DNA of 63,636 bases, the filler included, from Globobulimina sp. (lineage: Eukaryota): assembly GCA_003354225.1 (NCBI GenBank). It is 28 parts of 28 records of this genome, joined end to end, with 100 filler letters (N's around TTAATTAATTAA, not from the genome) between each part and the next. Parts side by side here need not be neighbours in the genome. Positions count along the whole stretch, not along the records: positions 25,054 to 27,230 come from PIVH01008409.1; 27 more parts are not named here. One strand, written 5' to 3'. The notes under the pieces are model-generated. The model worked only from the letters and a program-made list of their open reading frames with translations. It had not been told where the DNA came from and did not search any database. The translations under genes were made by a program, and so were the position numbers. This document shows positions 6,835-58,926 of this stretch, piece after piece (the stretch's first letter is position 1; each line of letters begins with the position of its first letter).

Positions 6835-9012
6835 ATCTGAAATTGTTGGTTCTAAATAGAGATTACAGAGAAACACTGAGTTCATGCCTTGACTTTGATG
6901 AATGTGACAAACGAATACCTTTATTGTCCCATATGTTAAATGCAATGCATACACAATTAATGCAGATCGATCACCAGTTTTGGATGCAAATTAATTATAC
7001 AAATCTCATTCAGAATCATGTAGAATATCTAACTATCTTCAAAACATTGTTTAATTTGCAATATGACGAAATAAAAGAATCAATTCTCTCCTCCATAGAT
7101 GAATTAACTGAAAATAAAAATAATTCGAATGAAACTGCAAAATTCAACAAGTTACAATCATGGGCAATAAATGAATCATATTATTCATCTCATGTTGCGC
7201 ATCGATGGCCATTATTTTCAAATCTTTCAAAAACAGTCAAAAAAGATTATCAAACATTAGATGCAGCAGCAAAAAAACTAACAATGGTATTTATAGTTGG
7301 TGTGGAAGGTGTTGGTCATCATTTTTTCCGTTCATTTTTCACAAACTTAGAAAATATTGATAATGAACAGTATGTCCATCAAAAAGATAAACAGTGGACA
7401 CAAGATATCGGTGCATTGTGGCTAATTATGGACGAATGCTGGTCGTTTGATTTATGGGGTTTAATCAAACCATTATCATGGTCGCCGCAATTGGCTGTCA
7501 ATATATCACAACTGCCGGAAAACGAGCAAAAGTTTATTAGTTTATGTGCTGTAGTACAGAAAAGAATTGATGAATATTCGCTAGCTATGAAAAATAATTC
7601 AATATTATTTATATCGACTCGTTTTAGTTTCCCTTATGATGATGCAAAGATTAATAGATATCCAGATATTGTACAATTAATCCAAATGGCACAAAATGCA
7701 AAACCATATCCATTTGATATGCGAGTATTAGTTTTGAAAAGAGATTATAAAACAGCGCTTATTTCATCCTGCATCAAACGGTTTGGTTTTTGCTCGCAAA
7801 GAATATTATTATTGAGGTATATGTTGAATGCAATGCATATACAGTTATCTCAAATTGATTCACAATTTTGGTTACAAATAAATTATACGGATTTAGTGAA
7901 TAATATGATGGATTATTCACATATATTGAGCATATTTTTAAATGTAAAATATCGACATGTTATCACAGCGCTGGAAGGAACTAAAAAAATGTATCATGCT
8001 AACAAACAAAATAAAGTAAGTAAACAAAAAGAATTAACTCAACAGCAATTATTGGTAATCAATGAATTATATTACAATTCGAACAGATGGCCGTTATTTA
8101 CAAATAAATATTATATTGTCAGTCCGAAAAATTATCAATTTTTAACCATGAAAAGATTTTTAAACAATTTAGAGATAACTGGCATGCGAATAAATTCTAA
8201 TGTTCCTTTAGCAGCAATCATCAGTCCAATCAACACCAAATGTTTATTGCTATGGTATAAAATAACCAAAAGCGAGAATTGTAATCCCGGAGGAATCAAA
8301 CATATGACCCACCACATGGTAACCCATGGCATTCTGGAAGCAGTGCATAGAAATTGTAGTTATTTGATATTAGACTCAGACTTGGAATTAGAAAAAAACC
8401 ATGCTTCAAATCATAATACATTTAGCAATATGGAATATAAATTTACCTATTCATATTGGGATTTTTTTGATTTATCCAATGTCAAAATAATAAATAGTAA
8501 GACAAATAAATCAGTTCCATTGAAAATAAAATCATCAAAATATTTTAATGAAAATTTAAAACAGACACTAAATATTTCGGGGAAACAAATGATTTTTAAT
8601 GACGATTTATTTCAATGCGATCGTCAGATTGAACCAAGTCTTTCATATTCAAATAAGACAGATGTAAATGGGGAATTTGTGTTTATTCGATCGCCGACAA
8701 AGTGTGACAAGTGTTGTGGACCGTGGTCACATGAATCATGTTATAATTATTGGAAACCATATAATGTATACATACCTTTTGCTGATCATATTTTGAACGC
8801 ATCAGTTAATATTATGAATAAAATGAAAAATGATATAATGTATCAAAATAAAGATAAAATATATAATAATTACTGCTGGATAACATTAATGGTTCGTAGA
8901 GGAGATAGGAATTATTGGTATAGCACGTCACATAAATTTGGAATGCGACCTAAAGGAATTACAATTATTTTATACTATTTAATTAATAAATTTTGTGATA
9001 TGGATGATAAAA
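6835..9012 (+). CDS. Partial multidomain protein: repeated sulfotransferase-like domain(s) plus C-terminal fucosyltransferase-like glycosyltransferase region
   Basis: PAPS-loop-like VFIVGVEGVGHH; duplicated LVL.RDY...LNAMH.QL.QID.QFW.QINYT; GT-like GGIKHM and TLMVRRGD. Confidence 0.5.
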
Positions 9013-9394: not shown

Positions 9395-10393
9395 CTAAAA
9401 AACAAAATCCATATATATCAGATGTACATATATTGAAACTTTCAAACCTATATATCCACCAACATGCGCATCATCAGTATGTTGTTTAAATTCACGTTCC
9501 TTTCCATCGACGCCCGTCACAATAATTTCAGCAACTGCTCCTTTACCCATACGCCCAATCTGGGTATTAATCCTTCCCGTCAAATCCCTCGACGTTTCTG
9601 TAATCGTTTCCCAAGTCAGTGGTGGTGGGCGGCTTCCTTCAATTGGAGTTCTCATCGACGATGACCAATGTTTTTTGGCTATTGTTGTTGTCCAATAATC
9701 TTTCTTTCCGGTGGCTGTTTCTGTGCTTCTGCTATATACAGCCTTTACCAAAGTTTTTTTTTTTGCACCGCCAGCGCCAATCATTTCCAATCTCAACACC
9801 TCCTCTTCGCCCATAGTATAACGTAGCACATGATCCACACGCTCACCACTCGAGAATTTCAAGGATATGCGAGTCGTACCATCATCGAGATCTGCAATCC
9901 GCACAGACTTTACATGTTGATACGATTTATGAGTATGTGATTTAAATTCACCTTCCTTTCCATCTTTGTCTGTTACAACAATTTTAAATACTGATTCTGT
10001 TTTCGCAATCTCTTCATTAATCTTTTCCGCCAACTCCGCCGAAGTCCAATCACTTTCAGTGGCTGTTCCTGTGGCTGTTCCTGTGACTGTTCCCTTCCAT
10101 ATCTTTCCTGCAGCTGTTTCGCTGCCTTCTCCTGTATATTCAGCGCGTACCACACTAATTGGTTTATATTCACGGTCTACCTCTTGATACCAGAACAATT
10201 CCAACACATCGTTTTCTAACATAGTATAATAGAATACATGATGCCAACCACTGCCACGCTCGAATGTCAAGGATATTCGAGGACCATCGGCTTCATCAGT
10301 AATGGACACAGATTTTACAGGTCGATATGGTCCACGCCTTGCAAATACTGAGTCACAAAAAATGAGAAACCAAATTGTGTACAACGCAATCAT
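9395..10393 (-). CDS. Secreted protein with two tandem copies of a ~135-aa domain
   Basis: Signal peptide MIALYTIWFLIFCDSVFA; repeats Y.(P/H)VKSV.I.D..DG..RISL.F...HV..YTM and IVT..DGKE.EFK.HT. Confidence 0.7.
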   Translation of the reverse strand: MIALYTIWFLIFCDSVFARRGPYRPVKSVSITDEADGPRISLTFERGSGWHHVFYYTMLENDVLELFWYQEVDREYKPISVVRAEYTGEGSETAAGKIWKGTVTGTATGTATESDWTSAELAEKINEEIAKTESVFKIVVTDKDGKEGEFKSHTHKSYQHVKSVRIADLDDGTTRISLKFSSGERVDHVLRYTMGEEEVLRLEMIGAGGAKKKTLVKAVYSRSTETATGKKDYWTTTIAKKHWSSSMRTPIEGSRPPPLTWETITETSRDLTGRINTQIGRMGKGAVAEIIVTGVDGKEREFKQHTDDAHVGGYIGLKVSIYVHLIYMDFVF

Positions 10394-10549
10394 TTTGTAT
10401 CTGTATATGTTTCCAGCGACGACAGGATTTCCTTAACTCTGAATTTTATATAAAAAACACTTTACTAAAGTTTTAATTTTGCATTTTTTCGTCTAGAAGT
10501 GATCATCGTCTATTCTTCAAGTAAAATAAACAAAAAAAAGTAATCAAAA

Positions 10550-11437: not shown

Positions 11438-12936
11438 TTAATCATTCCAAACACTGTACACAAAGACAAATAACATGACGGAAACTAAAATTGCGGGACC
11501 AAACATGTCATGCAATCCTTTTGTTTGTCCTTTTAATAATTTATAATTCCTGCGATAATAAAGCGTGATGGCATAGATCAACACCAATAACGCAGTAATA
11601 ACTAAACAATACCCGGCCGGATCATTTTCATTTATTGACCGTATGGTTAACCCCGAACCGCCGATAAAAACTGGATTGTAATATGGATTTAAATATTGTA
11701 GGTTTCAATGAATAGAATAAATGAAATGGAGTCACACACTTTTACTTTTACTGTACCTGCTGTTTGAAACCAACCTAAAAATGTTCTTTCATTCGAAAAA
11801 TATACTTTTGGGTCTTTGGCTTTCTTTGGTTTCGAGAGCGCATTCTTCAGTTTTAAGATTTCGGTTGGTTTTATCTTCAAAATTCTTAACCAAACATTTA
11901 AAAATAGGCCATCCAAATGACTCAGCAACATTCGATAGATATTATCCGTAAAATCAAATTGCAAATACAACATAAAACATGTTGCAATATTATCAATCAG
12001 CGGTAGTATCGATGCCCAAATAGATTCTAAACCAACATCGTGTTTTTCCTCCTGCGCCGTCTCATGGATTTCTATAAATATGTTACCAACGACAGATAAG
12101 GTGGATGTCAATACAGTTAACAGCACCAACAATGTCATTTTATTCATCACAGACACCATTGTTACGGCAATACTTTCCTTGCGTACTAATACTGGTTCTT
12201 TCTCCTCATTTTCGTCAATATAATTACGCGATTTCTCTTCCATAGTTTTGGTTAATTCGGTGTAGAAATCGCTTTTTCTTTCACCAGATTTCATTTTTTT
12301 CATATGATTTGTTAACGACATTTTTAACAATAAATACAATTTTGATGTAAATAAATATAACAAGTATAACATGGTAATTTCGACCGACAACATCCAGCAT
12401 ATTTCGCATATAATCACTGTTTTTGTGTGATCTGAAACGGTGATTAATAAAATAATCGCTGCAGAACATAATAATAATACTAATAATATGCTTTTTAATG
12501 TCACGATCACACATTTATAGTTATTGCCACCTCCAAATGTTCCGAATGTATATTCAAAACGACAAATAAATACAAAAATAACACATAAATGCCCGACAGT
12601 GTCGAACGTGGCTTTTAAATATTCGATGGTATGGACGTCGACGAATATCATACCGCTCAGTGTATGCACATCAATTAATAATATTTGTAAAATGACACAT
12701 ATTTCTAAAATCGATGCTATTGTAAATGATAGAATGGCACAGATTGTTATCATCATAAACTTTTTCAATCCGTAATTAACGTTTATTGCACTCTGATTGT
12801 TGTTCATTTGTTTTTTGGACGTGCAGAGAACACGGAGTAAATGCATGATAAGGCTCAATAAAATAAGGACTGTGAGGACATATAATGACAATACAACATA
12901 GGCCGACCTTATTTTAACACCATTAATATGTGCCAT
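11438..12936 (-). CDS. 7TM (GPCR-like) membrane protein fused to a C-terminal DUF202/VTC transmembrane domain; intron 11756-11671
   Basis: Seven hydrophobic segments, then PKVYFSNERTFLGW (VTC/DUF202 signature); splicing an 86-nt GT-AG intron adds VFIGGSGL...LYYRRN...LHDMFGPAILV, ending in TAA at 11438. Confidence 0.75.
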
Positions 12937-12959
12937 GAGTTCTAACGTCTAATAGTGCT

Positions 12960-20499: not shown

Positions 20500-22675
20500 T
20501 TAATAATTCGTTCAATTTATGCTGTTTCATGTCGTATATACTCATTATATGTAATGTATCGTCGGTATGATACCATTTCGCATCGCCATTAATCAAAACA
20601 ACTCGAATCTGTCCCGACCAACTTTGTAGTTCAATAATCTGCGCCATGACCCAGGATTGCTGCAAAAATTTTATCTCAAATCGTGGGAACATATCATGCA
20701 AATATGGCATTGAAATAAATTTATGATGCAAATTAACAAATACATATTCCAACAATTTGTATGATCTGTATTTGTATGGCAGCCTTGCTGAGACAGCTCC
20801 AACTTTCACACAAAATGTATTTTCAACATATAAATGCTCGGAATAGTCAGTATCTGCCAACGCTTTAAAATTTAGATCAATTTGCTGGAAATCTATGCAA
20901 TGCTCATTTGCACTGTGGATCAAAACGCGGAGACCAGACATTGACCATTTGTCAAATTCTGCAGTACAATGAGACCATTCAGCAGTCGACGGATTAAATG
21001 AATCAAAACTAAATATCGACGGATTGTTTTTATATAAATCTCGCACATTTATTCGTTGTGTTTTTTGCGTTGAAAATGTAGACAAAAACACATATTTCTT
21101 AATGATAACTACGACATCATCGGGAATATATGCCCACAGAGTCAATGCTTCCATATTACGAATATTATACGACATTAGCGCTCCTAATTGATATTCAGTC
21201 AATGTTCCATTGATTAAAATGCTGTTTAAATTGATCATATTTTGGATATCTTTCTTATAAAATGATAACTCTTTAATATCAGGACAATATTTGCTCCATT
21301 CAAATAAATCTCCCATTCGTTTTGCAAATCGTTTGCAAAAATCGTGAGCATAGAGCAGCATTTCTAAATTTCTAAATTTCTGCGTCCGATCTGATAACCA
21401 ATAGCTATTAAATTCGCGTATCCATTGTTTCCATGACAAGATTGAGTACTCATTCATATCGCAATCAAAACATTCTTTTCCAATAATTGTGTAATAATGG
21501 CGATATTTGCAAAATAGATTTAACACAAAAAACATACACATAAATCCCTTTAAAGGTGATAGTGAGCGATCTTCCATATGCTTTAATGGAATGTTTCGAA
21601 ATAAACCTAGATACACACCGCTATAGTTACAATACGTGGTATTCCATGTTAGTCTGAATCTAAATGGCTGTAAACCATCATTCGGAATTGATATCCACGT
21701 ATTAAATAAGTCAAATATTTTATAAATGTGTATGACATGAACTGTATCCAAATGAAAACATAAAATATCATACATATGTTTTGAAAATATCTCATCACCA
21801 AAACAGTAATGAATCATAATGTTTTTGACACTCTCAAACACGGAGTATAAGCTGTGACAGTCATCCATATTATAGATAATATCCATGAATAATAATTCAA
21901 AAAAACTTCTATTATTTAGAAATAGCAAATCTGTTCGAGATAAATTTATTAGTGAAAATTGGCTGCATTTATTATTTTGTGTTTTGTACAATAAGGCAAC
22001 AGGCGAGAAGAGATAAGTGGTATTCACCACATTTTGATCTTTTGTGCGTGCGCTGCAAAGCAATGTGGATAGCAATAATATTAAATTAACGCACTGCGAT
22101 GATGGCGAGGTATGGATTATGGATTTATGGAATTCTGTATAGTATCTTCCCAGAGTTGTTATGCATTTACATTCTTTTATTAAATAATATTTTTGCGCTG
22201 CACCAATTGATGAAAACTGCAGTAATATCGATACTAATTCGTTAAATAAAGGATGCGTTTGTTGGTATTTTTCAATTCTCAATGTTTGTTTCTTTATTAT
22301 ATTAAGGATGCTTTTTATAAATCTGCCATAAATTGTTGATGATATTTTTGCGTATTGATGAATGAGAAGGTGATTATCTGCAGATACTACTCTATAAATT
22401 AATAGCTGCGAAATGAATTCATATTGCAATTGAAGAGTTGTTGTGGTTGCTTCATTTGTAAATGGTAATAGCAACTCATTATTTGTCAATAAAAAGTATA
22501 GCAAATTATCTATAATTTGTAATTCGAAATGTTGATCCAGTAAATATTTCAACTTGTATTTAATGAATATATTTTGATAAAGTTGAATCAGTTTCTCTTG
22601 ATTTTGAGATGGTTTTAATTTGCTGAAGCATTGTATAAATTGCACAAAATCTATATCGGCGTTAGACGCAGACAT
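20500..22675 (-). CDS. Large helical protein, possibly related to the C-terminal region of USP9/USP24/USP34-type deubiquitinases; 3' truncated
   Basis: Long ORF; HYCFGDEIFS and ISIPNDGLQPFR weakly recall that region; no catalytic motifs seen. Confidence 0.4.
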
Positions 22676-24547: not shown

Positions 24548-25070
24548 CCTGTTTTTGGTTTCTTTTGTGTGCATTCAATTGTTTATTTAATTAATTTTGA
24601 TGTTTAAATACTTATATTTTAATATTTGTTTTGTTTGTTTTTAAATTATTAATAATTGAGCGTGTGTTGTTAAATGTATTTGTGTATACAATCCAGATTT
24701 GTTCATTGTATTTTTTGTTTGCTTTTTTGTTTGCGATCGATTCATTATATCGATCATAAATACAGAACGTTTTTTGTTGGCTGACGATATCATCTTAAAA
24801 TTTGCTGAAGTAAAATGTATTTTTGGTGTTATATTTAAGGGTTTGGTCCCCTATTTTTTTGACAATTTGACAAAAACGATTTGACAATTTGACAGTACCG
24901 CTAACTCCTCCATGGCCCAAATGTTTTCACTTGTCAAATTTTTCATAATTTAANNNNNNNNNNNNNNNNNNNNNNNNNNNNNNNNNNNNNNNNNNNNTTA
25001 ATTAATTAANNNNNNNNNNNNNNNNNNNNNNNNNNNNNNNNNNNNNNNNNNNNATAAAAACATTAATTAA

Positions 25071-26662
25071 TTAATCAATTATTTTTCGTTTTATCTTCAT
25101 TTTTTTATCATTTATATATTTCTTTTCTTCAAACGTTACATTACGGTTAGAATCTATGGTGAAAGAATGCTCATAAGATAACATAATAATAAATATTAAG
25201 TTTTCAGCAGGTTTTTCAGCAAATCGGCCACATATTTCTAAATTTCCTAAATTATTTCCATCAATTTCGCTGTTTCCATGGCCTTTTTCACAATTGAAGA
25301 GATAAAAGGCATAACCGCTGTCAAACCAGTCATAAGGAAATTGAGGGAGAATCAGGTTAGAATTTGTGATAAAATCTGACTTTTGCATCTCATGAAACAA
25401 TCCCATATATGGCTGAGTGTATGCTTTCTTCTTGTAATCCATATTATACCTAAATTATGCTTTGTCATAATATTTTTGGATTTCTAACAAATGTAAAATT
25501 ATCTAACCCATTCGAATATGGCAATTCCTTTCCATTTAGCTTCAATGATAAATTTTCCAGAAAGAATGCACCAAAATTGAACCTCGCTTTCGAGTATGAT
25601 GAAAGACTTTTTTCACTAACTATTGCAACTGTTACATACTTAGGAAGTATACCTCTAGCAATAGTAGTTGGATTGATGATATTTTGATTTTTAGCTTGAG
25701 GAACTGAAATGACTAATATTGTTAAATTATAATTCTTTATTAAAAAATAAGTTTTCACTTTTTTTAACAACATTGCTGAGGAAATTATAGGAACGCGAAG
25801 GTATTCGTGTATTTATTGGTGTTATTCGCCCAACTGTCAGATAGCATTTTTGAATTTCCACAGCATACTGACTATTTTCGCTTCCAATTAAACAGGCTTT
25901 TGGCTCAGCAGGATAAAAACTCAGACTTATAGATACTTTATCCAATATTGGCTTATCAATTTGCAGGGTATCAACCAGTACTTTGCCACGCAAATGTACT
26001 GTTACTCCTTTATTTGATGCTCTATTTCGTTTATATGATCCTGAAGATCGATTTGTAGTGCTATTGGGCAATAAATTATTATACAGTCTTACCCTCATTC
26101 AATTTTGGCATTGCAGGGTTTACTACATCTAATGCTCCAGCCTGATCTTGCATGTATAACGCCGTTGTTAAAAGGCTTTCTCTTGCCAAAATGTTTGTAC
26201 TTAACATCATGGCAATATATGACTTATATGCATAATTTCCATGACTGCTTTCTACTTCAATATGGTTAAATGAAACGGAGACCTCCTACAATTACAAAAA
26301 ACATGTTTTTAGTCATATTTGTCTACCACTTTATACTTTAAAGATGGAATACAATGGAGCTTGCTCAAACGCAACCGGCTCTCCATCAGGAATTTTATCA
26401 AAAATGCCATCATCATTTTTCTTTAAAAGAGCAACTTCTAAACTTATGTAAATTTCCTGCGGGTCAATTAAAACATTTGGAATACCAGGAATCTGAAATA
26501 GACATTTGGTTACTGAAATTTGAACAAAAGGCACTTGAATACCTCAAAATTTATCGGTGTTTGATTAGTAATAGGAAAAACTGTATTAGGAATAATGTCC
26601 TGATACATAAAATCCTCCGTATCATCATATTCTTTAGTGAAATTTTTCACCAATGAAATCAT
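25071..26662 (-). CDS. Polinton/Maverick (adintovirus-like) double-jelly-roll major capsid protein, 444 aa, six exons: 26662-26543, 26492-26337, 26285-26093, 26040-25759, 25712-25508, 25449-25071
   Basis: Five GT-AG introns (50, 51, 52, 46, 58 nt) each restore frame; spliced protein has PINFEIPG..LIDPQEIY, PLYSIFKEVSVSFN, NYAYKSYI, LTTALYMQDQAG, GILPKYVTVAIV, FNFGAFFLENLSLKLNG, SGYAFYLFN, GNLEICGRF and TIDSNRNV in the expected order. Confidence 0.88.
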
Positions 26663-27542
26663 GATTACAATATCTTCTTATTTCATGTATAACGCGAGAT
26701 ATTTCCACTGGACAACCACTCATTAACTAGTTAATAATCAGACTGGACAGCAGTTCTGGCATAAAGTCGCCATAAATACGTCTTTCATGACTAAATATAA
26801 TCATAAAACGATGTAACCTCCACTTTTTAAAGGTGAAATCTCCGAAATTTATTGATAATCTAACATTTTTAGAACTCATTAATGATATTTTTCAATACAA
26901 TATGGGTAATTATTGATTTTTTAGGTTAAAATAAGAGATTTTCTAGGCAGCATTGATCAATTTATAGCATTTTTGTGGTCAGATTTATTGCAAAATTGGT
27001 GAAATTTGCATGAAATTCAATAAAAAATGTTGTCTTTCTCATGTTTTTTATGTTAAATGTAAGAAATTAATTGAGAATCTCACCATTTCTTTACGTAAAT
27101 TAACGATATTCTTCATCAAAACATGGATAACTATTGAATTTTTGGAAAAAATTATGAGACTTCCAGCAGAATTGATCAGTTTTATAGCATTTTGCGATTA
27201 AATTACTTTAAAATAGGCTGTGATTAGGGTNNNNNNNNNNNNNNNNNNNNNNNNNNNNNNNNNNNNNNNNNNNNTTAATTAATTAANNNNNNNNNNNNNN
27301 NNNNNNNNNNNNNNNNNNNNNNNNNNNNNNCTTTATACATGTTCGATTGTATGGTCATGTCATAATAATATGTATAAATAACTTTGTTTGCAGGTAGGTT
27401 GTTTGGAGGTATGTTGTTTGCTTCTAGCAGAGATGCAGCTCCTTCTTCATACTCTGTATAACAAAAAATCACGAATGGTGTATCGTTGCCAAATCTAAAG
27501 TAATACTATATAATGTTACATTTTTGTTGTAAGTGGCGATGG

Positions 27543-28604
27543 TCATATTATTGAAGGTGGTGGACTGTTTTCATGCATATGCTGATTTGGGCTGGAACCA
27601 ATACTGCTGGCCGATGCTGCCCTTTTTAATTCAATCTCCCTCGTCGTCGGCCTCGTACTTTGTTGCTCTTCTTTTTTCTTTTTGTTTCGAACGCAAACGT
27701 TAACCAAGACACAACACCGACATAATTTAGTATAATATTTGTTATTGTAAGAAAACATTAACCCGATAACCATGCAATTTAAAAATAAATCAATATATAA
27801 ATATACCCCACCTAAACCAAATACAGCTCCCAACCAAAGTGAATATGCTAAAACCGAAGAGACAGTACCAAATATTGTTAGGATTGTATTTTTTACGATT
27901 AATGCATGAAAACGAAATGCAAATTGTAGATTATCTTTGTTTGTAGAAAATAATTTATTTAATTTGCTCTTGAATATCACACAAAATGTTATATTTAACG
28001 TCATAGTCCATACAAGTGCGATTAACAAAATGATAGTGCTGGATGAAGAAGATGCCATTGGCCAATCACAATATGATAACTGTCCAACCAGTCCATCTGC
28101 TGGATTCCATATTGCTTCACAAACTGAGATATGTCTGCTTAATATGATAAAAAGTGGCATCACAATAAAAAGTTGAGCGGAAATGATTGCGGATAATATA
28201 TATATTGCAGCTCTGCTGAGCGCTAAACCTGAGCCTCTGAAGGATTCTTCAGTTCTTAGCAATATTTGCGCAAAATAAAAAGTATAATATATCGATGCGA
28301 ATATCCTTGATCCATAAGCCATAACCACACAACTGGTTATATTTTTTCTATGTGATGTTAATGGATCGATTAACATTCTGAACAAATCATTAACAGTCCA
28401 CAAAATACCAATAACTTGAAGCAATATATATAAGACACGCAATTGTTTTTTTTTTGTTTTTTTGTTGAATGTTGTGTTGTTTTTTTTATATTCATTATAG
28501 GACGATTGGCATAGTAATGCTATCTGGAGAGGTATGATTATTGGCAAAGAAATCGCAACTTCTAAGAATGGATACGCCTGATTTTCCACACAGATTTCTA
28601 CCAT
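27543..28604 (-). CDS. 7TM (GPCR-like) membrane protein
   Basis: Seven hydrophobic segments and Cys-rich juxtamembrane tail YTKLCRCC. Confidence 0.75.
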   Translation of the reverse strand: MVEICVENQAYPFLEVAISLPIIIPLQIALLCQSSYNEYKKNNTTFNKKTKKKQLRVLYILLQVIGILWTVNDLFRMLIDPLTSHRKNITSCVVMAYGSRIFASIYYTFYFAQILLRTEESFRGSGLALSRAAIYILSAIISAQLFIVMPLFIILSRHISVCEAIWNPADGLVGQLSYCDWPMASSSSSTIILLIALVWTMTLNITFCVIFKSKLNKLFSTNKDNLQFAFRFHALIVKNTILTIFGTVSSVLAYSLWLGAVFGLGGVYLYIDLFLNCMVIGLMFSYNNKYYTKLCRCCVLVNVCVRNKKKKEEQQSTRPTTREIELKRAASASSIGSSPNQHMHENSPPPSII

Positions 28605-28861
28605 GTTTAGAAAGATGACTACTCGTGAAAACCTACATAAAAGAGAATACTTTCCCGTAGAATGGTTAGAAATTTTGTAACGTTATTCTCCACCAAGTTA
28701 TTATTTTATTTCATATATTATACGATTACCTTGAACTGCAGGCAAGCGCAAACACAATTTTTTATTAAATTACTCGATTAAAATTAAATACGTACAACAT
28801 GTTAATGTTTGTCGTTTAAAAATGATATCATTGATCAAAACATTTTTGACCAATTCATCAT

Positions 28862-32599: not shown

Positions 32600-34061
32600 A
32601 TGTAAGTCATGTTTCTGTTCTATACTAACTGCACCAACCTAATAACAATTTTTCTAGGTCTTGGCAACGAGAGTTTGAAACCAAATGTGATGCGTATGAA
32701 CTAAACATAGACGAAATAACTGGTAAAAAAAAATGGACCAAGCGTGGTATCAATGGTGATTTAATAATATATTCACATACGGACAATTTAAATGATTTCA
32801 AAGTTCGTTTTGAATTATTTTCGATTCAAGTTTGGTGGAAAGTGTTCAATCCCAAATTAAAAAAAAAAGGCTCAAAAACAAGAGTCATTACATTCAAACG
32901 ATTGAGCACTGCGCAACAAACCAAAGAAACGATTGCTTTGCGGTTTAAAAATGCACAAATATGCACATCATTTATTGCCAAATGGGAATCATTAACACGT
33001 GATATGGATTATGACACAACTGATGATGAAGCGGACGAAGAGGACCATAAACATCCGCAATATGACCCGAATACTCATAAAATGGACGAAGTTAAACAAG
33101 AATACTCATTGCTACAAACCGCGGATAAAATAAATATATTCCATTCGATCAATGGATTTAATTAATTCAGCTTCCATCTTAAATGAATATTATTTTAATT
33201 ATGGCATTAAGGATAAGATAGAAATCAAAAACAATCATATAAATTATGCAAATTACAGCTACGGCAAATATAATAACAAAGAACATTTTCTATCCTTGTG
33301 GATGAATAGCGAGGTATTACGACGTGTCTTCATCTCGCAATATAAGCGAGAACGCGTGAATATGGTCATAGTTTTGGATAAATCTGAATCAATGAACGAG
33401 TCATTATGCACCAATGAGGCAACTCGTATGGAGGTGGCACAAGAAGCACTCATCCAATTAGTCAGACATTCGTTGGATAAACAAGACAGATTTGCCATTA
33501 TTACATATAACGAGCGGCCTAAAATAGAATATCCATTGACATTAATTGATTCGTTGCCATATGGCATGGTGGAGTTAAGGAGGGATATTGTTAATTTTAA
33601 GGCAAAGGGCACTACAAATTTAGAGAAAGCATATAAATGTGCCATGGATGGGATATTTACAGATGAGGTATTGAGTGAAGCCAAGAAAGAAAATGTTTAT
33701 AATCGCATCATGTTTATGACTGATTTACAGTTAGATCCGTCCAAAAAACATGGCATATTTGCAATGATCAAAGAAGCGGCAGAGAAGAAGCAGATATATA
33801 CAACGTTTATGTCGATGGGGATTGAACAGGATATGGCTATGTTTGCGGGATCATTGTCGAGAGTGCGAGGATGTAATTATTTGACAGTGCGCAATAAACA
33901 GGAATTTATGGCCAAATTTCATAAAGATAAGGAATTTGCGTATATGGTTCGGCCCATATTGTATGATTTAAATGTTTCGTTAAATACGAAAATAGCACAG
34001 GTGTATACCGGTGGCAATGTTAAGCGTATTGAGAATGGACAATTGTTAGAAATAAAATCAA
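32600..34061 (+). CDS. RanBD/PH-like N-terminal domain plus vWA domain protein; intron 32602-32657; frameshift near 33160; 3' truncated
   Basis: Spliced N-terminus MSWQREFETKCDAYEL...WTKRG; vWA motifs IVLDKSESM, GTTNLEKA and RIMFMTD. Confidence 0.7.
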
Positions 34062-58114: not shown

Positions 58115-58926
58115 ATGGCAGAGCAAAAAGAATCATTTACACCAAGTTTTAGGATCACATATTTCCCGGCAGATGGTAGAGGAGGCGCATTAAGAGCTGC
58201 TGCATCATTTGGTGGCTTATCATACGAGGATCGATTCTCTTCATTCAGTGAACATAAACAAGCACAGACTGATGGTACCCGGAGATGGTATGAAATATAT
58301 CCTTTATATATGTATTCTAATTACATTTTTAAAAAAGGGCTGGAATCCCTGAAGTAACCGTATTTGATAAAGAGGGGAAGGAAATGGCAGTGATTGGCCA
58401 ATCCAATTCATGCTTGAGATATATTGGAATATTATGCGGCTTGTTTCCAATCAAAAACGTTGTTGAAAGAGCATTGGTGGATGAAATATTGGATAGCATT
58501 GAAGACGTAAATAATATGATTAATGCATCTGTGAAAGAGAGAGATTCGCAAAAAAAAAAAGCAATGCGATTGAAATTAACGGAAGCTGGTAATATCCCAT
58601 ATTGGTTAAATAAATTTGAAATGAGATTAGACGAAAACGAGAAAAGAGGCAATAAAAATGGATATTTTGTGGGCGATGATTTGACTGTGGCTGATTTAAA
58701 ATTTTATTTTATGCATAAATGGCTAACCTGCGGTCAATTGGATTATATTGATGGCGCAAAAATGTTTGACCCGTACAAAAGATGCATTGTTTTATGTGAA
58801 AAGTTAAAAGCAACGGATAAAATGAAAAGGTTTGAGGCAGAATTTGCGGTTTCAGTAAAGGACTATAAAGAAAATAAAAAAACATGTTTTAAACGCGCTG
58901 GAAAAGCTGTATATGGATCTTTTTAA
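58115..58926 (+). CDS. Glutathione S-transferase (sigma-like); 50-nt intron 58288-58337
   Basis: ITYFPADGRG..LR, IGQSNSCLRYIG, YFVGDDLTVADL; intron removal restores frame (RRW|AGIPEV). Confidence 0.92.

Follow-up and report, generated by a model that had tools for sequence, protein, structure and literature searches.

The window, by which we mean the whole 63,636-nucleotide stretch of Globobulimina sp. DNA (assembly GCA_003354225.1) that was analysed, carries on its minus strand a gene whose predicted spliced product is a member of the double-jelly-roll major capsid protein family, as judged from a family profile and from the modelled fold of its relative P0006. The explanation that we favour, with modest confidence, is a Polinton/Maverick-like (Preplasmiviricota-type) element that would be present, as DNA in multiple copies, in the nucleus of an AT-rich marine eukaryote; the gene would be its major capsid gene, interrupted by five old spliceosomal GT-AG introns of 46-58 nt. 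The splicing and nuclear residence of the gene, the mobility of the element and the assembly of a capsid are what we infer from the features described below.

Gene model

The window joins 28 contigs of about 2,175-2,178 bp each into one pseudomolecule, with N44-TTAATTAATTAA-N44 linkers between them, and the capsid gene lies on one of these contigs (Table 1). Cutting five GT..AG segments out of the interval 26662-25071, read on the minus strand, yielded a stop-free 1,335-nt coding sequence for 444 amino acids. The single stop in the 444-codon spliced frame is the terminal TAA at 25073-25071, and the frame opens at 26662-26660 with the first ATG downstream of an in-frame stop. The coordinates, sizes and phases of the five introns, together with the 444-aa coding sequence, had been given in a preliminary description of this DNA, and all of them were reproduced from the sequence.

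The predicted introns have an A+T content of 67-87% and show no repeat signature. As is characteristic of U2-type introns, all five have GT..AG borders and their removal restores both the frame and the homology. Four of them shift the reading frame and the fifth, intron 2, contains an in-frame stop, so that the unspliced RNA would be unable to encode the protein. An alternative genetic code was considered as the cause of the breaks and was excluded, because four of the five are frameshifts.

Table 1. Positions of the capsid gene, its exons and predicted introns, and the adjoining features, counted along the window.
Feature	Position	Strand	Details
Contig carrying the capsid gene	25054..27230	.	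2,177 bp; linkers on both sides; the rest of the window is other contigs
Upstream non-coding region with direct repeat	26844..27193	.	Found by self-BLAST
Exon 1	26543..26662	-	120 nt, aa 1-40; junction PINFE|IPG aligns to relatives
Intron 1	26493..26542	-	50 nt, phase 0, GTATTC..TTTCAG; X1 paralogue alignment ends at 26494
Exon 2	26337..26492	-	156 nt; profile 46-99; X1 paralogue alignment limited to 26334-26466
Intron 2	26286..26336	-	51 nt, phase 0, starts GTA TAA; junction SIFK|EVSVSFN gapless
Exon 3	26093..26285	-	193 nt; profile 101-157
Intron 3	26041..26092	-	52 nt, phase 1, GTAAGA..CTTCAG; in X2 DNA (contig 25928-26148, 2 differences)
Exon 4	25759..26040	-	282 nt; profile 157-238
Intron 4	25713..25758	-	46 nt, phase 1, GTGAAA..TATTAG; L001 counterpart 77-138, 62 nt
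Exon 5	25508..25712	-	205 nt; profile 279-333
Intron 5	25450..25507	-	58 nt, phase 2, GTTAGA..ATTTAG; L001 counterpart 335-385, 51 nt
Exon 6	25071..25449	-	379 nt with TAA; profile 334-434; identity 53% to P0001, 84% to P0055

Capsid family and fold

A profile of 437 positions was built from 38 uninterrupted relatives, with the rows from the window left out. The spliced product matched it as a single domain (258.5 bits, E 5e-81, positions 36-434). The same profile matched five of the six exon ORFs, exon 1 being the sole exon with no match of its own, and the matched segments are collinear and abutting (Table 1); the remaining ORFs of the window (1,224 in total) gave no profile match. These collinear, abutting matches indicate that the five-intron gene model did not arise by chance. 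Furthermore, the alignments of the product to P0006, P0007 and P0008 are gapless over all five junctions, at 25-28% identity.

Searches with single exons were unproductive. At E up to 1, no Pfam family was matched by any of the six exons, and a PHROGs search with the six gave a match to exon 6 at chance level (E 0.43). Exon 6 retrieved no longer protein in a word-indexed search and nothing in a PDB sequence search, where the family profile gave a chance match (E 0.35). Such results are expected from short pieces of a family for which there is no good model. At the level of the family, the Pfam DJR-like_dom matched five of the 50 members weakly, with a best E of 3.1e-4, which is below any curated cut-off. 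Scans of IMG/VR viral contigs and of prokaryote genome contigs revealed no relative of the capsid gene, and a scan of metagenome contigs revealed L001 (1,090 bp) as the sole related locus.

The fold was predicted for P0006, the closest full-length relative, which is 28% identical to the window protein. The AlphaFold2 model (pLDDT 92.0, pTM 0.91) consists of two consecutive jelly rolls in one chain. Foldseek returned 221 PDB matches for it at E up to 0.001, among them Vp54 of PBCV-1 (1.3e-16) and the capsid proteins of an iridovirus, Sputnik and mavirus. The VIA-align Z was highest for PBCV-1 (26.2), followed by Sputnik (22.4), mavirus (21.9), the adenovirus hexon (16-18) and PRD1 P3 (16.2), and the largest numbers of residues were aligned with the virophage capsid proteins (371 for Sputnik and 364 for mavirus). 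We know of no solved Polinton capsid structure with which the model could be compared. The top BFVD match, by E-value and by identity, was a protein of Cotesia sesamiae bracovirus (E 1e-21, 18% identity, TMq 0.38); according to the available part of one report, Cotesia bracovirus CcBV carries Maverick remnants (PMC2646287).

The profile score and the fold of P0006, with its similarity to the PBCV-1 and Sputnik proteins, bear out the earlier description of the product as a double-jelly-roll major capsid protein. That description had also specified the Polinton/adintovirus type. Here the membership of the double-jelly-roll family stands, and the narrower type draws on the fold, on the bracovirus match at 18% identity and on the weak DJR-like_dom matches, which together are suggestive of it.

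We regard it as very improbable that the gene is a giant-virus (Nucleocytoviricota) capsid gene inside a giant endogenous viral element that acquired host introns, even though the top structural Z and the E of 1.3e-16 belong to a giant-virus capsid protein, ahead of the virophages. Neither any exon nor any of the 50 members of the family matched Capsid_NCLDV (PF04451) at E up to 1, and Capsid_N matched two of the 50 with a best E of 0.021. The Capsid_NCLDV or Capsid_N match by which Nucleocytoviricota are recognised in sequence was therefore lacking, despite a very similar fold. Moreover, the structural match of highest identity is the bracovirus protein, and the virophage capsid proteins align over the most residues. 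Against these results can be set the length of about 440 aa, which is similar to that of Vp54, and the first ESM Atlas cluster of exon 6, in which 22% of the members carry Capsid_NCLDV. There is also the example of punuivirus, a latent endogenous giant virus of Chlamydomonas with GT-AG spliceosomal introns in 61 of 506 genes, as described in the available text of that study (10.64898/2026.10.09.758095).

Conservation of the introns and selection on the exons

The clade of the window gene, which we call the W clade (10 rows, support 95/98), is known solely as exon-sized ORFs. Two of the proteins, P0001 and P0064, contain ..FS|YNMD, in which the AG of the acceptor has been translated in frame. 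Among 11 matches in 1.84 billion representative proteins, none was an uninterrupted W-clade protein, and the W clade and its kin are diverse in metagenomes, with 26 exon-sized relatives. The P0006 group (n=15) and the P0007 group (n=19) belong to the same protein family and are collinear with the window gene from end to end at 25-28% identity. In contrast to the W clade, however, their members are single ORFs of 401-451 aa.

The metagenome contig L001, a second contig with 56% amino-acid identity in exon 6, shares the position and the phase of introns 4 and 5 with the window gene, and these are the two sites that it covers. The intron sequences themselves are no more similar than shuffled ones (129/300 and 81/300 shuffles reach the observed identity), and at both sites position and phase have thus been kept while the sequence drifts, as is characteristic of U2-type introns. 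Over 210 codons of the exons, dN is 0.30, dS is 1.65 and dN/dS is 0.18. The exons of the capsid gene are under purifying selection.

A similar pattern was found between the window gene and a second copy at 25233-25633 in X1, from which it is separated by 57 substitutions and 7 gaps. For this divergent copy six indels are listed, at 25451-25488, all of them located within intron 5. The exonic differences shown number 27; 17 of them affect the third position of a codon (binomial p 0.0015), and 14 leave the amino acid unchanged. The shared positions in L001, the dN/dS value and the confinement of the paralogue indels to the intron show that the introns are conserved non-coding insertions and not signs of decay, and the earlier claim of a conserved gene without decay is upheld on the same grounds. 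A decayed pseudogene is excluded by the dN/dS of 0.18, by the third-position bias and by the restoration of the frame at exactly five GT..AG pairs.

The W clade would be a lineage that kept both checkable introns, together with purifying selection on its exons, over a divergence of dS above 1. It is possible, and in our estimate only just short of probable, that the clade represents an entire lineage, made up of Polinton-like viruses or transposons from marine eukaryotes, in which structural genes bear ancient, position-conserved spliceosomal introns. If this is true, the elements of the W clade need the host's nuclear transcription and its splicing for the production of virions, have long co-evolved with one host lineage and are systematically invisible to ORF-based censuses of endogenous viruses. 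Further clades that are known as exon-sized ORFs may be like the W clade.

Copies of the gene and its surroundings

The capsid gene is present in more than one copy. At least 2-3 divergent copies (~85% identity) occur within one sample, and variants occur again in the independent marine run X2, although this multi-copy status is read from Logan contigs that are short and derive from a sample with amplification or low depth, and alleles, a second organism or a host gene family could instead account for it. In further X1 contigs the alignment is confined to exon 2 and ends at most 2-3 nt from its borders. The window sequence itself is present in the marine metagenome X2, with 0-2 differences per contig; one X2 contig (25391-25561) spans intron 5, and one X2 variant, at a depth of 2.6, has a 1-nt insertion in exon 6. 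No joints, and hence no intron-less DNA form, appeared among the contigs aligned to the window, a comparison that covers contigs alone and is not proof of absence.

The contig ends 17 nt past the stop codon of the capsid gene. The 568 bp upstream of the gene contain no convincing ORF and no viral neighbour. Nor does a contig of only 2,177 bp show any of the genes that define a Polinton (protein-primed PolB and rve integrase), an ATPase, protease or penton gene, or TIRs. Self-BLAST revealed a direct repeat of ~130 nt in this region (27193-27063 against 26973-26844, 76% identity, 220-nt period), and the repeat region also occurs in X1 as variant copies. Between 26874 and 27230, 10 substitutions and 5 indels separate the X1 contig from the window, so that upstream of the gene the window contig may combine several copies in a mosaic. 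The codon usage of the capsid gene is indistinguishable from that of other contigs of the assembly (RSCU r 0.74, compared with a host-versus-host mean of 0.72).

These observations bear on two further explanations. In the first, which we consider unlikely but deserving of attention, an ancient Polinton-like gene was captured, gained host introns and is no longer mobile; it would be a domesticated capsid gene or small gene family, retained for a cellular role such as antiviral defence or vesicle formation. The five host-sized introns, the host-like codon usage and the 568 bp without a viral neighbour are all consistent with domestication, as are the strong purifying selection (dN/dS 0.18) and the stability of the intron positions over dS above 1, which is typical of vertically inherited host genes. 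However, an active virus would show selection on its capsid gene equally. The presence of divergent copies in one sample and of variants in an independent marine run, the repetition of the upstream non-coding DNA and the diversity in metagenomes of the W clade and its relatives, with 26 exon-sized relatives, argue against a domesticated gene.

In the second explanation, the contig is a fragment of the episomal or virion genome of a free, non-integrated, nuclear-replicating virus with intron-bearing genes, which infects a co-sampled eukaryote. DNA viruses of the nucleus, for example adenoviruses and adomaviruses, do use host splicing, the same sequence recurs almost unchanged in X2, and no junction with host DNA was seen in the contigs. 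A free virus is nevertheless improbable, given the several divergent variants together in one small sample, the codon usage that cannot be distinguished from that of the remaining contigs and the lack of a relative among the IMG/VR viral contigs. In addition, five introns per 1.3-kb structural gene is, to our knowledge, a far higher density than in known small DNA viruses. A mobile, multi-copy nuclear element remains, with modest confidence, the explanation that we favour.

Expression and relation to known systems

In such an element, the five spliceosomal introns would leave transcription in the nucleus and subsequent splicing by the host as the sole route of expression. Trimers of the 444-aa spliced product would then make up the pseudo-hexameric capsomers of a small icosahedral virion, and the element would propagate as DNA, with introns that outlast each round because the element copies itself as DNA. 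The requirement for nuclear expression and the host spliceosome that the predicted introns would impose speaks against a cytoplasmic giant-virus factory as the site of expression and in favour of either a nuclear program of the adenovirus or Maverick type or domestication. Capsid genes of the double-jelly-roll class whose expression requires RNA splicing are known from other viruses: mimivirus and faustovirus have intron-split capsid genes, and adenoviruses and adomaviruses have spliced late mRNAs. They differ from the window gene in virus class, in the type and size of the introns and in genome context.

The window gene resembles the Polinton/Maverick major capsid protein genes (PMC4028283, PMC8097293) in that it lies in eukaryotic DNA and encodes a capsid protein of the double-jelly-roll type with a length of ~430-450 aa. 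Its family has as its best BFVD match a protein of a bracovirus, a group in which Maverick remnants are described in the available part of the source cited above, and has members with weak matches to the Pfam DJR-like_dom. It differs from these genes by its five introns, where an uninterrupted ORF is usual by an informal criterion. In the available text of Barreat and Katzourakis (2021), the ORFs of intact vertebrate Mavericks are intronless (PMC8097293), and Krupovic, Bamford and Koonin (2014) nowhere mention introns, exons or splicing (PMC4028283). Surveys of integrated Polinton-like viruses and virophages use prokaryote-style ORF callers because of a stated absence of introns in such elements, as far as the accessible sections of these papers go (PMC10120064, PMC9356565). 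The preliminary remark that such capsid genes are usually described as uninterrupted ORFs therefore agrees with these three sources, as far as their available text goes (PMC8097293, PMC10120064, PMC9356565).

Two recently described systems are closer in one respect or another. In dinoflagellates, eupolintoviral proviruses bear introners, and some of these elements have capsid genes, as reported in the available text of Gozashti et al. 2025 (PMC12166617). Both cases involve intron-type sequence inside Polinton-like elements of marine protists. However, their insertions, on the evidence of that text, are recent, recognisable introner transposons and mostly young, whereas the window introns are 46-58 nt long, lack a repeat signature and are conserved in position over dS above 1. 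Punuivirus, by the available account, is likewise an integrated DNA virus with host-type GT-AG introns in its genes. Its introns, however, are a mark of latency genes and show a negative association with the late promoter of the virus, and its capsid gene contains a group I intron, in contrast to the five predicted spliceosomal introns of the window capsid gene. In the parts of the literature that were accessible, we found no account of a Polinton-type capsid gene with conserved spliceosomal introns; supplements could hold a precedent.

Because the five introns are conserved and the clade is known as exon-sized pieces, part of this virus supergroup would be missed, or mis-scored as decayed, by ORF-based surveys. 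Gene screens that assume integrated viruses to be intronless would likewise miss the lineage of this capsid gene. A concrete gene with five junctions is now available as a test case for splicing in a structural gene of the Polinton-like kind.

Other contigs of the window

The genes that had been treated as host genes in the same window turned out to lie on separate contigs, with linkers in between and no physical linkage to the capsid gene. Two introns in these genes, inferred from ORFs at 58288-58337 (50 nt) and 32602-32657 (56 nt), had been cited as similar in size to those of the capsid gene. Both are plausible by ORF logic, and this part of the argument stands; since the window joins unlinked contigs, the argument as a whole is weaker than was claimed. 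A count of GT..AG segments joining ORFs across the window gave 371 candidates, compared with 364-648 for control dinucleotide pairs, and is therefore uninformative. No Rfam family and no tRNA was detected in a scan of the window. Pfam searches on 10 long host ORFs identified generic eukaryotic domains in four and none in six, and a fragment of a host trehalose-phosphate synthase, searched against the Atlas, led to bacterial clusters.

Gene structure of the capsid locus

When recomputed from the sequence, every coordinate and detail that the preliminary description had given for the capsid gene and its introns proved correct. All five candidate introns begin with GT and end with AG, their A+T content is 67–87%, and their pooled G+C is 0.249, compared with 0.331 for the exons. 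Removal of these segments leaves exons of 120, 156, 193, 282, 205 and 379 nt, which join into a frame of 1,335 nt encoding 444 residues with a single, terminal stop codon. An in-frame stop precedes the ATG at 26662, and the contig ends 17 nt beyond the stop codon of the gene. Because four of the segments shift the frame and the 51-nt segment starts with GTA TAA, translation without splicing could not yield the protein.

A query of 1.84 billion representative proteins with exon 6 returned 11 matches, including three full-length metagenome-derived relatives (P0006, P0007 and P0008; 425–447 aa), in which the C-terminal part was matched, and six fragments of exon size. The profile made from these three proteins recovered 37 family members, none of which showed a Pfam domain. 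A second profile, built from 38 uninterrupted relatives with the window sequence excluded, matches the ORFs of exons 2–6 as collinear, abutting segments (positions 46–99, 101–157, 157–238, 279–333 and 334–434 of 437); exon 1 gave no separate match, and no other match was found among the 1,224 ORFs of the window. The spliced product matches this profile as a single domain (positions 36–434, 258.5 bits, E 5e-81), and its score exceeds the summed scores of the exon pieces. In a MAFFT alignment with P0006, P0007 and P0008, to which the product is 25–28% identical over about 400 columns, all five junctions are gap-free (for example, PINFE/IPG against PIQFT/IPG and SIFK/EVSVSFN against SIFE/DCTVYLN, with the slash at the junction). 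The gene is intact and belongs to the capsid family, and the five-intron model is very likely to be right.

Coordinates of the capsid-gene introns and other features, with the members of two clades of relatives
Feature	Position	Strand or location	Description
Intron 1	26542-26493	minus	50 nt, phase 0
Intron 2	26336-26286	minus	51 nt, phase 0, begins GTA TAA
Intron 3	26092-26041	minus	52 nt, phase 1
Intron 4	25758-25713	minus	46 nt, phase 1
Intron 5	25507-25450	minus	58 nt, phase 2
L001 intron at intron-4 site	77-138	L001	62 nt, phase 1, GT..AG; position and phase identical to window
L001 intron at intron-5 site	335-385	L001	51 nt, phase 2, GT..AG; position and phase identical to window
Candidate host intron	58288-58337	other contig	50 nt, GT..AG, phase 2; from ORF logic
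Candidate host intron	32602-32657	other contig	56 nt, GTAAGT..TACTAAC..TAG; from sequence only
Direct repeat	27193-27063 vs 26973-26844	upstream of capsid gene	~130 nt, 76% identity, 220-nt period
Pfam-less long ORF	504-1649	other contig	
Pfam-less long ORF	6837-9011	other contig	
Pfam-less long ORF	9398-10432	other contig	
Pfam-less long ORF	11692-12948	other contig	
Pfam-less long ORF	20501-22675	other contig	
Pfam-less long ORF	27546-28682	other contig	
K clade members			P0004, P0010, P0057-P0061, P0063, P0065, P0068, P0071, P0072
Further clade, besides K			P0003, P0011, P0070, P0073

Conservation of introns 4 and 5

The support for intron status is comparative and comes from four lines: the related metagenome contig L001, contigs from two public sequencing runs (X1 and X2), exon-sized relatives, and the sizes of host introns. 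L001, the sole related metagenome locus found, is 1,090 bp long and spans the last part of exon 4 together with exons 5 and 6; its exon 6 is 56% identical to that of the window. Both intron sites within its span are occupied. The identity between the window and L001 was reached by 129 of 300 shuffles for intron 4 and by 81 of 300 for intron 5. Position and phase are thus kept although the intron sequence has been randomised, a pattern that marks old introns, and the comparison identifies at least two of the predicted interruptions, introns 4 and 5, as conserved non-coding insertions with spliceosomal borders. Across the 210 aligned codons, protein identity is 58%, and differences at codon positions 1, 2 and 3 number 63, 41 and 107. 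For this pair dN/dS, a check proposed at the outset for copies of the gene, is 0.18 (dN 0.30; dS 1.65, which is saturated), and the codon comparison indicates that the exons are under purifying selection.

Additional copies and the upstream region

X1 contains 0.82 of the sampled words of the locus. Its contigs match 25233–26058 and 26119–26781 with 0–3 differences per contig and cover introns 1, 2, 4 and 5. In X2, an independent marine metagenome, one contig (25928–26148) spans intron 3 and another (25391–25561) spans intron 5 with two differences, both intronic; the organism behind the window contig occurs in a marine metagenome. The gene is present in more than one diverged copy. A second X1 copy over 25233–25633 carries 57 substitutions and 7 gaps, and the six of its indels that are listed all lie at 25451–25488, within intron 5. 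Further X1 contigs can be aligned over exon 2 alone, the alignment ends (26334 and 26494) falling within 2–3 nt of the exon borders at 26337 and 26492. Among the 40 of 118 differences that are listed, 30 are in the gene (3 intronic and 27 exonic); of the 27 exonic ones, 17 fall at third codon positions (binomial p 0.0015), and 14 leave the amino acid unchanged. An X2 contig at 25159–25363 (depth 2.6) shows a 1-nt insertion at 25211 in exon 6 and a non-synonymous cluster at 25217–25234; the 25211 variant may come from a copy with a frameshift, from misalignment of a 3-nt indel within a variable loop, or from an error.

No convincing ORF was found in the 568 bp upstream of the capsid ATG. Variant copies of the repeat region located there are also present in X1; 10 substitutions and 5 indels separate X1's own contig in this part from the window, so that the window contig may be a mosaic of copies upstream of the gene. 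The existence of several diverged copies, the repetition of the flanks and the diversity of the clade in metagenomes make us lean, by a modest preference, towards a gene that belongs to a mobile or recently mobile element. The main rival, a domesticated capsid gene family, which the constrained exons would also suit, is less likely but a serious contender.

Exon-sized relatives

A profile of exon-6 relatives recovered 26 proteins of 75–198 aa; 22 were kept in the alignment, four covering 25–46% of the query were left out, and P0001 and P0002 were added. The tree of these relatives and the C-termini of the full-length proteins was made from 63 rows, of which the program dropped one. The window product falls in the W clade, which consists of the window, L001 and eight fragments (support 95/98). 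In two of the fragments, P0001 and P0064, non-homologous N-terminal residues end in ..FS right before YNMD, which is the acceptor ..TTTAG/Y translated in frame. The remaining six begin at a methionine just downstream, and their sequences are consistent with the same break. No uninterrupted W-clade protein was found in any protein search, including the exon 6 search of representative proteins. In the K clade (12 rows, support 100/99), known from short ORFs only, the reading frame continues across the intron-5 site. Here and in one further clade, only ORFs of 101–198 aa were present, covering the C-terminal part with the intron-5 site uninterrupted; their breaks, if they are interrupted at all, would lie elsewhere, and short contigs could explain some of these ORFs.

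Fold and lineage of the capsid protein

A fold model was made for P0006, the closest full-length relative (28% identical to the window product), from an alignment of 50 family rows that included the window's exons. The model had a mean pLDDT of 92.0 and a pTM of 0.91. Foldseek gave 221 matches in the PDB at E up to 0.001, with PBCV-1 Vp54 at the top (1.3e-16), followed by the capsid proteins of iridovirus, Sputnik, mavirus, EhV and faustovirus. In VIA-align, Z was 26.2 for PBCV-1 (345 residues, rmsd 3.0), 25.6 for faustovirus, 22.4 for Sputnik (371 residues), 21.9 for mavirus (364 residues), 16–18 for adenovirus hexons and 16.2 for PRD1 P3. Because of these matches, the model places the family of the window product among the double-jelly-roll major capsid proteins. 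The fold named in the preliminary description stands for the family, as checked on P0006.

By E-value and identity, the best BFVD match of the P0006 model came from Cotesia sesamiae Mombasa bracovirus and is an uncharacterised protein (E 1e-21, 18% identity, TMq just 0.38); lower matches, at 8–13% identity, were virophage, giant-virus, adomavirus, adintovirus and MELD-virus proteins. An excerpt of PMC2646287 describes Maverick remnants in CcBV, a Cotesia bracovirus, and we infer that the matched protein is a Maverick capsid. Weak Pfam matches among 50 family members were to DJR-like_dom (5 of 50, best E 3.1e-4) and Capsid_N (2 of 50), and none of the 50 matched Capsid_NCLDV. In the ESM Atlas, exon 6 lies next to clusters that carry the labels Capsid_NCLDV (22% of members), DJR-like_dom (12%, arthropods) and Preplasmiviricota, each with a score of 0.98; their recognition value is low, and we treat this placement as a lead only. 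The product appears to be a double-jelly-roll capsid protein of the Polinton-like supergroup. Less certainly, it is a Polinton/Maverick-like or Polinton-like-virus protein and not a typical giant-virus one. The earlier assignment to a Polinton/adintovirus-type capsid would rest on the fold, the bracovirus match and the weak DJR-like_dom matches; formal Polinton membership would call for a polymerase, an integrase and terminal repeats, for which the 2,177-bp contig is too short.

Expression and comparison with known systems

Whichever reading holds, the presence of introns implies that the capsid gene is expressed in the nucleus and speaks against virophage-like expression in the cytoplasmic factory of a giant virus. 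A giant-virus-derived gene, to which the Vp54 match might point, is highly improbable. For the mobile element that we favour, transcription of the gene would take place in the nucleus, the host spliceosome would remove the introns, and the 444-aa product would assemble into trimeric capsomers. Because Polinton-like elements replicate as DNA, the introns would be copied with the element and would leave its propagation unhindered.

The capsid genes of mimivirus and faustovirus are split by introns, and adenovirus late mRNAs are spliced. The view that capsid genes of the present class are usually single ORFs agrees with published descriptions: intact vertebrate Mavericks are described as lacking introns, "in agreement with" Kapitonov and Jurka 2006 (PMC8097293), and absence of introns is the stated ground for ORF-based gene calling in two surveys of integrated viruses (PMC10120064, PMC9356565). 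Excerpts of other reports describe introner transposons in eupolintoviral proviruses of dinoflagellates (PMC12166617) and group I introns near the capsid gene in cryptophyte Polinton-like viruses (PMC12220804). In punuivirus, a latent giant virus of Chlamydomonas, 61 of 506 genes contain spliceosomal introns, which are associated there with latency genes, the intron of its capsid gene being of group I instead (10.64898/2026.10.09.758095), whereas in the window the capsid gene itself would carry the spliceosomal introns. In the literature searched, supplements, a recent review and the two founding Polinton/Maverick papers aside, no Polinton-type capsid gene is described as having spliceosomal introns at conserved positions. 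What seems new is a clade of capsid genes with old spliceosomal introns, which standard screens would break into fragments.

Candidate host introns, codon usage and make-up of the window

The proposed likeness to host-gene introns in size holds for two candidate introns inferred from ORFs, of 50 and 56 nt, but their lying on other, unlinked contigs weakens it as an argument. The former joins two ORFs of an apparent glutathione-S-transferase gene, so named from its sequence alone, and the latter would divide a start codon, AT/G, ahead of the ORF at 32629–33165. Between the capsid gene and 11 long ORFs from other contigs, codon usage is indistinguishable (RSCU r 0.74 vs a host-versus-host mean of 0.72; GC3 0.267 vs 0.321 ± 0.068), which suits either a gene resident in the same organism or a virus well adapted to it. 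A free nuclear virus is improbable.

The 63,636-base window represents several loci and not one: 28 contigs of about 2,175–2,178 bp, ordered by length, are joined by 100-bp linkers (N44, TTAATTAATTAA, N44). The capsid gene lies on the contig at 25054–27230 (2,177 bp); the rest of the window has no physical linkage to it, and synteny across any linker is an artefact. All contigs are AT-rich (G+C about 29–37%). Eukaryote-type genes among them encode, for example, Nop52, RCC1 repeats, a STRIP/DUF3402 domain and a metallophosphatase, and 6 of 10 long ORFs (345–725 aa) tested on other contigs lack a Pfam family at E up to 0.001. Asn/Gln runs are abundant in many ORFs of the window.
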